Below are positions 13,256-16,734 of a stretch of DNA of 64,000 nt, in pieces (positions within the stretch are counted from its first letter, which is position 1; each line of letters starts with the position of its first letter). This stretch comes from an uncultured Pseudomonadota bacterium (GTDB lineage Bacteria; Oederibacteriota; Muellerivitia; Muellerivitales; Muellerivitaceae), in NCBI GenBank assembly GCA_963843375.1, contig CAWJKT010000010.1, positions 128,001 to 192,000 on the forward strand, read 5' to 3'. The position numbers and the translations under genes were made by a program. The notes beneath the pieces were generated by a model. That model was not told the DNA's origin. It was given only the letters and a program-made list of their open reading frames with translations, and did not search any database.

Positions 13256-13642
13256 ATGAGGATTAAGCTAAACAGCGTATTCGTAGACGACCAAGAAAAG
13301 GCTCTTAAGTTTTATACAGAAGTCTTGGGTTTTGTTAAAAAAGTTGATTTCCCCGTGGGGACATTTAAATGGTTGACGGTTGTCTCTCCTGAAGAACCAG
13401 ACGGAACACAATTATTGCTTTCGCCGAATGCCAACCCTACTTCAAAGACTTATCAAAAATCAATTTTTGAACAAGGAATACCTACCACCTCATTTGCGGT
13501 GGACGATGTTCAAAAAGAATATGAAAAGCTTAAAAAACTCGGAGTAAAGTTTAGGCAACAACCGGTAAAAATGGGACCGGTAACTCAAGCGGTTTTTGAT
13601 GATACCTGTGGAAACCTAATTCAGATTGCAGAGAAGGAATGA
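13256..13642 (+). CDS. VOC (glyoxalase/bleomycin resistance) family protein
   Basis: VFVDDQEKALKFYTEVLGF, FDDTCGNLIQI; GAGGAGG RBS. Confidence 0.92.
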   Translation: MRIKLNSVFVDDQEKALKFYTEVLGFVKKVDFPVGTFKWLTVVSPEEPDGTQLLLSPNANPTSKTYQKSIFEQGIPTTSFAVDDVQKEYEKLKKLGVKFRQQPVKMGPVTQAVFDDTCGNLIQIAEKE

Positions 13643-13648
13643 AAGTCT

Positions 13649-13662
13649 TTCCACAACGGGGA
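13649..13662. repeat. Palindromic repeat copy 1 (left arm only)
   Basis: TTCCACAACGGGGA, 6 bp after the VOC stop. Confidence 0.5.
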
Positions 13663-13672
13663 GGGTAAAAAG

Positions 13673-14455
13673 TTGAAAATAATCGGAAAAGAAATATTGG
13701 TAGTGCTGGGACTTATAGTCGCTATAAGCATTCCAGCGTATTTACTCCGACTTCTCTTTAAGTACTACGCTTTGTTTTCGTCCGTCGACCCCTTTGGGAC
13801 TACTTGGAAAGGAGTGTGGATCCTTCAGGCCTCTACCTTGGTGGGCGTTCTCGTGACCGCCCTCTATACGAGCTGGCTGTTCTCCCTAAAACCCTGGCAA
13901 GGATTTGAATTCATGGGATTCAAAAAGCCTGATGGGAAACAAATCCTAGTTGCTTTATTGGCTTCTTTGCCTACCGCTTTGAACATGTGGTATGCCCTTC
14001 ATTCAAGTCCTGGCGCAGCTTTGATTCAGGGTTGGGGACCCCACCTTCTTTTTTCTTTTCTTGGTAACGGGGTTGTCGAGGAAGGCTTTTTTCGCGGCTT
14101 TTTCTACCATTATTTTCGAATGAACCACTCTTTTGAGGGAGCTGCTTTGGGTTCGAGCCTTCTTTGGAGCTTGGCGCATCTGTCAATGTCCAGTGCCTTC
14201 GGCTCTTTTTGGGTCTCCATGATCTTGGCCCTCGTTTTGGGTTTCCCCTTTGCCTACCTTTTTGAAAAAGGGAAGAATGTCCTTTGGGGCTGTATGCTGG
14301 TCCACATGGTTCTTGATTCATCCCAGTTATTCAAAAATCCAGATGGAACCGGTCTTAATTTAGGAAATCTCCAGGTTGTGAGTCTTTTGCTCACCACAGC
14401 CCTTATTTTTATTCTGCCAAGATGGGTTATGAAATCGGATCGATCAATTCAATGA
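13673..14455 (+). CDS. CPBP (CAAX/Abi) family intramembrane metalloprotease
   Basis: EEGFFRG, WSLAH and VHMVLD motifs; multiple TM segments. Confidence 0.88.
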   Translation: MKIIGKEILVVLGLIVAISIPAYLLRLLFKYYALFSSVDPFGTTWKGVWILQASTLVGVLVTALYTSWLFSLKPWQGFEFMGFKKPDGKQILVALLASLPTALNMWYALHSSPGAALIQGWGPHLLFSFLGNGVVEEGFFRGFFYHYFRMNHSFEGAALGSSLLWSLAHLSMSSAFGSFWVSMILALVLGFPFAYLFEKGKNVLWGCMLVHMVLDSSQLFKNPDGTGLNLGNLQVVSLLLTTALIFILPRWVMKSDRSIQ

Positions 14456-14458
14456 TAG

Positions 14459-14488
14459 ATGTCCACGACGGGGACCCGTCATGGACAT
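14459..14488. repeat. Palindromic repeat copy 2
   Basis: ATGTCCACGACGGG-GA-CCCGTCATGGACAT; 14-bp arms with one mismatch. Confidence 0.9.
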
Positions 14489-14533
14489 GGAAATATTAGT
14501 TAATGAGGACTACGTTTTTCGAAGGGAGGCGTT

Positions 14534-15081
14534 TTGAGAAAAAACAAGGCCTTTTCAAATGATCTCGGGACTTTGCCCGTCACTATTTATGGAGGGGTTC
14601 CAGGCGCATTGTCGTTGTTCGGGTTGGGATTTTGCCTGGCATTTATTGTCGTCTTTTTACAAGTAACTGGGGACATTGTTCCCTTGTGGGCATGGCTGCT
14701 TTTTGGTTCCATGTCTTTTTTTATGTTTTTAATGGGAATGGTGATTCTTGAAAACCGCATCCAGGTTAACGAATCGAGTTTGTCCTTGTCCCGCATGCAC
14801 TGGAACCTATTTTCCCCGCCATACTTGAAAATTCCTTGGGCCGACATCCGGAAAATCGATGCCAGCCAAAAGAACATCAAACCCGGCCGATATGGCCCTA
14901 ACCAAATAACGTTGGTCCAAATTTTTCACAGCAGCTCGGAATAACCAGCGGAGATAAACGTAACCTTATTCAAGTCGAATCCCCAATGGCCAGTTATCGA
15001 AAAACCATCCTAGAGAAAGTGGGTGAAGTTCGGATCACGGAATCGGCCGGAAGGATTTTGGGGCGGGCGAGTCTTCATTAG
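14534..15081 (+). pseudogene. Two-TM membrane protein (bPH-like tail), apparently degraded at the 3' end
   Basis: ORF stops at 14944; protein-like sequence continues past the TAA and, after a shift in the A-run near 15000, runs to TAG at 15079-15081. Confidence 0.45.
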
Positions 15082-15086
15082 AAACT

Positions 15087-15120
15087 TGCCCACGACGGAA
15101 ACCCGTCGTGGACACCTAAA
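15087..15120. repeat. Palindromic repeat copy 3 with CCTAAA extension
   Basis: TGCCCACGACGGAAACCCGTCGTGGACACCTAAA. Confidence 0.88.
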
Positions 15121-15142
15121 TTTAGAATTGTGTACATAATTA

Positions 15143-15170
15143 TTGACATAGTAATAAGAAGCATTATATT
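15143..15170 (+). promoter_or_regulatory. Sigma70-like promoter of the TA operon
   Basis: TTGACA-16 bp-TATATT. Confidence 0.55.
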
Positions 15171-15211
15171 GAAGGGGTCGAAGGTTTTATAGCTTTCAAG
15201 AAGGTGGTCTT

Positions 15212-15490
15212 ATGCGAGTCGCGGGAGTAAGAGAATTTAGGGATCACGCGCCGGAATTTTTGAGCGGCGACGACCTTGTCTTTGTGACCAAACACGGGAA
15301 GGTTGCCAGCCTTTTGGTTCCGATGTCTAAGTCGCAGGAACTTCCCTTGGAATTGCGGAGGGAGCTTTTAACGAACCTGGGTTCTTCCATTTCAAATCAC
15401 CTCAAAAAATCAGGCGTCACTGAGCGGACGGTAACACATGACTTTGAAACATGGAGAAAAAGCCACCGGGCAAATCGCCGCGGACGCTAA
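15212..15490 (+). CDS. Phd/YefM-type antitoxin
   Basis: MRVAGVREFRDH..L...DLVFVTKHGKVASLLVP; overlaps the PIN gene. Confidence 0.8.
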   Translation: MRVAGVREFRDHAPEFLSGDDLVFVTKHGKVASLLVPMSKSQELPLELRRELLTNLGSSISNHLKKSGVTERTVTHDFETWRKSHRANRRGR

Positions 15491-15869
15491 CGTCCTCCTT
15501 TCCGCCGCAACCGGGAGGGCCGCTCTCAAAGTTTTCATCCATTCCAACCTTGAAGTCATATCCACATCCTTGAACATCAAAGAAGTTTGGGAATATCTTC
15601 CCGTAATGGCCGCGAAATATGGAATAGCCCCTGAACTCATGGAAAGCCAATTTCAATTATTAGCTGTCAGGGAATACGAACTCAGGGATTACCAAGGATC
15701 ATTGGCTATAGCTCGAAGAAAAATTGGAAAACGAGACCCGGATGATATTGATTTGCTGGCTTTATCTCTTGATCTGGGAATACCCCTGTGGTCAAACGAT
15801 GGTGATTTTTCGGGAACCGGCGTTGAATGGTATACCACGGCTCAACTTCTTAAAAAGTTAGAGCTTTAA
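15438..15869 (+). CDS. PIN-domain (VapC-like) toxin
   Basis: ADANVL, RDPDD and LWSNDGDF acidic catalytic residues; exact start uncertain. Confidence 0.85.
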   Translation: MTLKHGEKATGQIAADANVLLSAATGRAALKVFIHSNLEVISTSLNIKEVWEYLPVMAAKYGIAPELMESQFQLLAVREYELRDYQGSLAIARRKIGKRDPDDIDLLALSLDLGIPLWSNDGDFSGTGVEWYTTAQLLKKLEL

Positions 15870-15877
15870 TATGCGGC

Positions 15878-15910
15878 TTTAGGTGTCCACAACGGGGACC
15901 CGGAATGACA
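15878..15910. repeat. Palindromic repeat copy 4 with TTTAGG extension; right arm degenerate
   Basis: TTTAGGTGTCCACAACGGGGACCCGGAATGACA. Confidence 0.8.
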
Positions 15911-16046
15911 GGCTACTTGTAAGGTTTTACATCTTCATTAAGGGTCATTTGGGCGACGAAAAGGCTACTGGGGCGGGCACTTGTCGCCAAAATGGATTAA
16001 GCATAAAATGCTTTTAATTGTCAGGAAGAAACCAAAAGGCATTGAG

Positions 16047-16346
16047 ATGAAAACAGCCATCCAAATCGACAAAGAAAAAATAGCTGAAATATGCCGAAGA
16101 CACCATATCCAAAGGCTGTCCCTTTTTGGATCGGTCTTGCGGGATGATTTCAAGCCCGACAGCGACGTGGACGTACTGGTGCAATACCAGCCGGGCCAGG
16201 CCGTTGGTTTCGAGGTTTTTGACATCGAAAAGGAACTATCGGACCTGTTTGGCCATGAAGTGGATTTGGTGACTGAAAAATACCTTAATCCACGCCTTCG
16301 GGAACGCGTGCTCAATTCGGCGGAAGTCCAGTATGCAGAGGGATGA
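16047..16346 (+). CDS. Minimal nucleotidyltransferase (MntA-type antitoxin)
   Basis: LFGSVLRDDFKPDSDVD = GSx10DxD; VDLVT. Confidence 0.9.
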   Translation: MKTAIQIDKEKIAEICRRHHIQRLSLFGSVLRDDFKPDSDVDVLVQYQPGQAVGFEVFDIEKELSDLFGHEVDLVTEKYLNPRLRERVLNSAEVQYAEG

Positions 16347-16671
16347 CCGGGTTTATATCGGTCATATGTTAGATACGGCCAAAAAAGCCATCCTGAAAAT
16401 TCAAGGCCGGAAACAAGAAGAGTGCGAAGCGGACGAGGATTTTTGCATCGTCCTGGCCCATTACGTTCAAACTTTCGGGGAGGCCGCCCGACATGTAAGC
16501 CCCGCCTAACAATCCGCTCACCCCAATATTCCCTGGGAAAAAATCATCGGGACGCGCCATAAAATTGTTCACGATTATTTGAGCGTGGATTATGGGGTCG
16601 TCCTGGGGGTTGTCTTCAGGGAATTTCCACCGTTAATCCCCATCTTGGAAAAATACCTGGCCGAGATTTAA
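16333..16671 (+). pseudogene. HepT-like HEPN (DUF86) toxin with an internal stop
   Basis: Not in the ORF track. My translation: MQRDDRVYIGHML..GEAARHVSPA*QSAHPNIPWEKIIGTRHKIVHDY..; in-frame TAA at 16507-16509; Rx4H motif. Confidence 0.85.
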
Positions 16672-16706
16672 ATTCGAGTTTTCGGGCTTATTTTGCCGAA
16701 ACAACC

Positions 16707-16734
16707 TGTCCACGACGGGGACCCGCCTTGAACA
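16707..16734. repeat. Palindromic repeat copy 5
   Basis: TGTCCACGACGGGGACCCGCCTTGAACA. Confidence 0.85.

Follow-up and report, generated by a model that had tools for sequence, protein, structure and literature searches.

In a 64,000-nucleotide (nt) stretch of DNA from an uncultured bacterium (assembly GCA_963843375.1, contig CAWJKT010000010.1, positions 128,001–192,000; hereafter, the window), a series of accessory genes is punctuated by 28-base palindromes. These palindromes are interpreted here as the joints of gene cassettes that are exchanged at the centre of the site, with a short serine recombinase encoded elsewhere in the genome as the likely acting enzyme, a reading to which we assign a probability of roughly 0.7. 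That this is a gene-cassette system as such is highly probable. Integrons are the textbook natural system for collecting and shuffling gene cassettes; the system described here is integron-like in its working but lies outside the integrons by its enzyme and by its site.

The original prediction, made from the sequence of the window, listed five related, co-oriented copies of the palindrome, and these are indeed present, as four full sites and one half site (Table 1). Two of the predicted starts, 15087 and 16707, are exact, and three, 13649, 14459 and 15878, miss the true start by 1, 1 and 6 nt, respectively. Three of the window copies match the consensus with at most three mismatches, compared with none in 100 shuffles, and a scan of the window yields no further full copies, as predicted. 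The proposed gap of 3–35 bp between a stop codon and the following site holds for the VOC (5 nt), CPBP (4 nt), PIN (14 nt) and HEPN (35 nt) genes but not for the open reading frame (ORF) of a membrane protein, where the gap is 142 nt and the frame continues to the site across two in-frame stops.

In the whole genome, a weight-matrix scan detects 86 copies of the site at 18 bits or more, 82 of them outside the window, compared with none in two shuffled genomes. Scattered copies, which the original prediction had named as evidence against a gene-capture system, are not what is found: another copy lies within 3 kb of 70 of the 86, where random placement gives 9.9 on average and 26 at most. In 76 of 85 cases, the site points the same way as the prevailing gene strand, and, by inspection, the arrays contain accessory genes, many of them toxin-antitoxin-like. 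The site is present in 24 of 30 examined genomes that belong to one family of candidate division FCPU426. The consensus is found at three or fewer mismatches in 18 of 24 other family genomes and in the one genome of the same order (1/1), and at two or fewer in all five further family genomes; among 15 genomes of other orders, none contains it at three or fewer mismatches. Viral contigs yielded no copy of the site, and the single match in plasmids is at chance level. At the syntenic position, past a gene that we take to be IOR-like, a genome of the same genus (G001) carries a different array with none of the window's units, and four other genera (L299–L302) have no site at that position.

The units between sites recur with new neighbours. 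The collection analysed comprises 613 sites and 450 site-to-site units (median length, 838 bp) from genome G000, selected array regions of 17 relatives and two metagenome loci, the regions having been picked for the presence of sites. Among the 450 units, 85 pairs are shared over the full length, some of these being introns, and the outside neighbours of the shared pairs are homologous in only 3 of 84 cases upstream and 3 of 80 downstream. Identical units of 1217 bp (G001) and 863 bp (G075) lie in two arrays within one genome, and units of 975 bp (100% identity) and 800 bp (99.6%) are common to two genera. The breakpoints coincide with the repeats, in agreement with the prediction, and shared units with different neighbours support the gene shuffling by repeat-to-repeat units that it proposed. 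These comparisons of sequence show that a cassette starts with a site's right arm, continues with one to three genes and ends with the left arm of the site that follows. Contigs assembled from four read runs, contigs being the only material and the depth low, contain no circles or joints at 11400–18700. We also considered arrays that would begin at a pseudo-site, with a poor left arm first and a poor right arm last; this arrangement is weakly supported, both array ends being slightly more degenerate, and in both arms.

The consensus site consists of two perfect 13-bp arms around an asymmetric central GA, which is found in 458 of 496 sites. The function as a hairpin suggested by the original prediction found no support: compensatory arm changes are at chance level in the 496 sites, and compensatory pairs across 365 predicted cassette circles are at the shuffle level. 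The arms assort independently (odds ratio 1.28, p = 0.25, 610 sites); in the same set, position 12 is linked with the left arm (p = 6e-4) and position 17 with the right arm (p = 5e-3). The tally of individual exchanges leaves out copies of group II introns and of an IS110, as well as one local inverted duplication (G072) and one degraded unit (G016). The upstream right arm is identical in all seven near-identical cassettes with new neighbours; of eight downstream junctions, six have an identical left arm and six a different right arm. Arm differences bracket the exchange point at site positions 11–18, and linkage narrows it to 12–17. These data fit a 2-bp serine exchange at GA without proving it, and the site appears to behave as a double-stranded 13-2-13 crossover site.

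Repetitive extragenic palindromes (REPs) lie between genes, are accompanied by a GTAG/GGAG tetranucleotide and are associated with the gene of a REP-associated tyrosine transposase (RAYT). The palindrome studied here could be a REP-like element, a terminator or an RNA-stabilising hairpin behind accessory genes: like REPs, it is a short intergenic palindrome past stop codons with tens of copies per genome, lying at a median of 24 nt past the stop codon and on the strand of the gene in 413 of 450 cases. Furthermore, group II introns and an IS110 insert at the site, as IIC introns do at terminators according to the available part of PMC4424553. This explanation is nevertheless hardly tenable. The arms lack the covariation of a hairpin, just 37 of 603 sites are followed by five or more T within 8 nt, the polarity of the site is kept behind 37 opposite-strand genes, and GTAG/GGAG precedes two of about 600 sites. 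Neither a Y1 transposase nor a RAYT (PF01797) is encoded in the site-rich genomes G000, G018 and G023, PF01797 being present in the site-less G007, G017 and G024, and an Rfam scan of 12500–17500 gave no match at E ≤ 1. The site also bounds mobile units, and their exchange at its centre is left unexplained, so that the mapped exchanges largely refute this reading.

The length of 28 bp and the mapped interval of 11–18 are also compatible with a 6-bp spacer, and the site could then be dif-like, with an 11-6-11 structure, and be acted on by the only Xer-type tyrosine recombinase of the host. The model for this reading is the pdif/dif modules of Acinetobacter (XerC/XerD), where, in the portion of PMC6449649 available, 28-bp sites with the 11-6-11 structure bound shuffled accessory modules. 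An Xer-like gene is found in 30 of 31 family genomes and would be on hand where the serine enzyme is missing. Despite these points, the Xer reading is very unlikely. In 6 of 6 loci, the Xer gene adjoins an AT-rich 11-6-11 site of its own that is unrelated to the cassette site, and the gene also occurs in genomes without the cassette site; the would-be spacer positions 12 and 17 segregate with opposite arms; and the GC-rich cassette sites are direct repeats, co-oriented in 368 of 385 adjacent pairs, whereas pdif sites are reportedly inversely oriented (title of a reference in PMC6449649). The window itself contains the single Xer-like gene (54366–55469, + strand). An AT-rich 11-6-11 palindrome lies at 54387–54414, at the start of this gene, and in all six genomes checked such a palindrome is conserved next to the gene; it is probably dif and marks the terminus because the gene-strand bias flips nearby.

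The exchange of cassettes at double-stranded 28-bp sites is more readily attributed to a serine recombinase. Clustering of 2230 proteins encoded around arrays yielded one that ends near a site in several genomes, and this enzyme is likely, judging from its sequence and genomic context, to be that of the cassette system. It belongs to a clade of 19 clusters, 275–283 amino acids (aa) long and 74–100% identical, with the next matches at no more than 61%; the scan of the genome collection took in 29 of 64 parts, so other short clades may be missed. All 19 members contain PF00239 and PF07508 only, with no zinc ribbon or coiled coil, and form a monophyletic group (100/100) among 42 sampled full-length relatives. 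Residues R18, S20, D89, R90 and R93, which we take to be catalytic, are invariant in the 19 sequences, and the ratio of nonsynonymous to synonymous substitution rates (0.03–0.13; 24/28 pairs computable) indicates purifying selection. A mediocre structure model (predicted local distance difference test score 65), which served for the fold class only, has fold matches to serine integrases. The contact area of the recombinase domain, 13 bp according to the accessible part of PMC3783163, matches the 13-bp site arm.

The enzyme gene and the site are closely coupled. A site lies 9–111 nt past the stop codon of the enzyme in all five intact genome copies and in all six metagenome loci with downstream DNA, one of these sites being cut by the contig end, and the gene is arranged tail-to-tail with the site at array ends. 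No site lies beyond the stop in the loci of full-length relatives (0/73 and 0/78); instead, 79 of 111 relatives end on a tRNA motif, compared with 20 of 765 control windows. Given that the relatives mostly end on a tRNA target of their own, the short clade has retained the ancestral order of gene followed by site, with the site itself replaced. In the full-length sister recombinases (L099, L100, L109, L110, L137–L289), the last codons overlap the antisense 3' end of tRNA genes (79/111). Remnants of the enzyme gene truncated at the 5' end are joined to a site in G005, G012, G018, G021 and G076, and extra remnants are found in G000, G001 and G072, which also carry intact genes; in G072, three remnants that are 96–100% identical to the intact copy each adjoin a different cassette. 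One of the remnant searches had a query that included the site, favouring such matches, and another, with the gene alone, covered mostly site-selected loci. Matches of the short enzyme in plasmids are all below 60% identity. In contigs of four read runs, the enzyme gene at its G000 locus is uncovered, which is no proof of its absence, and there is one unrelated joint inside the intron. At this locus (C9:135155–137125, L304), a group II intron with a reverse transcriptase gene splits the enzyme-proximal site near the centre; in a close strain (L134), the same site is intact, with different cassettes adjoining.

The assignment of cassette movement to this enzyme has to be weighed against several observations that count against it. 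Only 5 of the 31 family genomes, and none of 68 others, yielded an intact enzyme (the matches in G012 and G025 are full-length enzymes), and in the site-rich genomes G010, G016 and G023 neither enzyme nor remnant was found, save a matching flank at a contig end in G023. In metagenome locus L133, the site has the opposite polarity and is 111 nt away. In two of the eight downstream junctions, the left arms of near-identical cassettes are one base off. Position 16 is weakly linked to both arms, and positions 12 and 17 are weakly linked with each other, which leaves the cut confined to an interval and does not fix it at GA. The toxin-antitoxin units of the window also occur without sites (the PIN unit in G021, the MNT-HEPN unit in two of three close matches). 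Finally, as described in the available part of PMC3783163, an integrase with its coiled coil deleted recombines all pairs of sites intramolecularly, treating them as interchangeable, and excises without integrating, and deletion of the zinc domain weakens binding about 25-fold; therefore, insertion by the short enzyme would be the weakest step.

Some of these observations favour an explanation in which the cassettes are real but owe their movement chiefly to homologous recombination of the 28-bp repeats, or to another enzyme in trans, with the short serine recombinase only deleting cassettes or being a passenger: most site-bearing genomes lack an intact serine recombinase, truncated integrases integrate poorly (PMC3783163, in the part cited), and the left arm shows the two single-base exceptions. 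We consider this explanation unlikely, although the least so among the alternatives, given the tight coupling of enzyme and site, remnants included, the purifying selection on the short enzyme and the occurrence of all seven full-length pairs with 100% identity (including an intron and a local duplication) in enzyme-bearing genomes, which are also well sampled. Moreover, homology alone leaves a fixed, family-wide site unexplained.

Under the preferred reading, that of cassettes moved by the short serine recombinase, a dimer of the ~278-aa enzyme would bind both 13-bp arms in double-stranded form and cut at the central GA, the asymmetry of which would keep all sites in direct orientation. With the zinc ribbon and coiled coil lost, every site would be equivalent for the enzyme, so that cassettes could be excised as circles and inserted, less efficiently, at any site. 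Because the array in the window contains no enzyme gene, it would be served in trans, as the original prediction had proposed, in the manner of attC clusters that have no integron-integrase (CALINs). Platforms of enzyme and site may travel on integrative elements, give rise to arrays and later decay. As for the type of enzyme acting in trans, the candidates named in the original prediction (RAYT/HUH, IS110 or a tyrosine recombinase) do not fit, and the short serine recombinase does.

The likely source of this enzyme, the large serine integrases (LI, SPbeta, Bxb1, phiC31), share with it the catalytic and recombinase domains, as described in the accessible portion of PMC3783163, and the full-length relatives likewise end at their own target. 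The differences are the size of the enzyme (about 278 against 500–570 aa), with no zinc ribbon or coiled coil, and the presence of hundreds of equivalent short sites of one type against a single attP/attB pair. In integrons, sedentary chromosomal ones included, and in CALINs, as here, co-oriented cassettes of one or two genes are each followed by a site, and half of the CALINs reside in genomes without IntI (PMC4889954, available part). Similar in both systems are the toxin-antitoxin, VOC and acetyltransferase-like cargo, the group II introns and IS110-family elements at sites, and the many enzyme-less arrays. The system studied here differs from integrons in that there is no IntI, that a fixed, sequence-conserved 13-2-13 palindrome takes the place of a folded single-stranded attC, and that the candidate recombinase sits at the array's 3' end in convergent orientation, as opposed to a divergent one at the 5' end. 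The IntI profile TIGR02249 scores above the cut-off in none of 41 genomes. The boxes that we take to delimit attC, RYYYAAC and GTTRRRY, occur together within 60 nt in 4 of 592 sites, so the predicted lack of attC cores stands.

It is fairly probable, then, that this is a ‘serine integron', i.e. a second, independently evolved cassette platform, in which a tRNA-targeting large serine integrase stripped of its zinc ribbon and coiled coil yields a 278-aa product that removes cassettes and inserts them again between the hundreds of identical 28-bp sites of a bacterial family, with enzyme-less arrays, site-specific introns and insertion sequence (IS) elements. Among the papers listed in a literature search that reached few subscription papers and, for FCPU426, listed 25 of 134, there was no description of such a system. 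If the interpretation is right, the stockpiling and shuffling of cassettes evolved at least twice, the second time with another enzyme class and a double-stranded site, and a natural serine recombinase roughly half as large as phage integrases, acting on one symmetric 28-bp site, offers a test of the need for the zinc ribbon and coiled coil. Serine-recombinase arrays would probably be overlooked by attC-based tools. The short, fixed site makes the birth of cassettes, which is still an open question in integrons, tractable by simple sequence comparison, and the short recombinase could serve as a compact genome-engineering tool.

The sites are also targets of other elements. What we take to be the start motif of group II introns lies exactly +2 nt behind 23 sites and other introns split the site, giving at least three positions of insertion (centre, right arm and +2 nt). 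This parallels the class C introns, which target attC (PMC4424553, available part). IS110 transposases (PF01548) are encoded in 7 of 31 family genomes but not in G000, G001, G018, G021 or G023, and an IS110 next to a site is an insertion into the start of a cassette. An IS110-family element lies directly behind two sites in G075 (L310, L311). Tyrosine integrases of ~370 aa near some sites were rejected as candidates for the cassette enzyme: they pair with excisionase-like genes and are not consistently beside arrays. Six paralogous integrases of this kind are found in G000 (C6:226038, C8:85043 and 179354, C9:31181, C11:49933 and 206672), several with nearby excisionase-like and coupling-protein-like genes, i.e. 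a family of integrative elements, some of which carry sites.

Table 1. Cassettes and 28-bp sites of the array, in window coordinates.
Feature	Position	Strand	Pfam match or remark
VOC/glyoxalase gene, first unit	13256–13642	+	PF00903, E 6e-19
Half site	13648–13675	+	Left arm with 2 mismatches, central GA; degenerate right arm
CPBP/Rce1-like gene cassette	13673–14455	+	PF02517
28-bp site	14460–14487	+	13-GA-13, 1 mismatch to consensus
Decayed membrane-protein cassette	14534–15086	+	136 aa to first stop; two in-frame stops
28-bp site	15087–15114	+	Centre variant AA
Putative antitoxin and PIN-domain toxin cassette	15212–15869	+	PF10130
28-bp site	15884–15911	+	Right arm degenerate
MNT-HEPN toxin-antitoxin cassette	15981–16671	+	PF01909, PF01934
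28-bp site	16707–16734	+	Last of the array

The VOC, CPBP, PIN and MNT-HEPN cargo of the window array was correctly named from the sequence, as indicated by the Pfam matches (Table 1); neither the putative antitoxin nor the membrane ORF has a match in Pfam. A half-site scan found no site upstream of the VOC gene, which may therefore be resident and not a cassette; it has no DNA match at E ≤ 1e-15 among 30 family genomes. The CPBP unit has a 94.2% identical counterpart in G075, extending from 13669 to site position 19, where the right arm and the neighbour differ from those in the window. The PIN unit is found in 10 other family genomes at 79–88% identity, mostly bounded by sites and with other neighbours; 8 of the 10 copies have a downstream site or left arm, and 8 have an upstream site or right arm. 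Only one of three close matches of the MNT-HEPN unit is bounded by sites, and, in translation, the HEPN gene of the window is interrupted by an in-frame stop at 16507–16509. Just 5' of the array region, at 10734–11431, a B12-binding/radical-SAM-like gene lies in two frames and is apparently broken. Past the array, at 16816–19031, there is a block of three genes, without a Pfam match, that encode Cys/His/Met-rich small proteins and a 478-aa protein; this block matches other loci in relatives.

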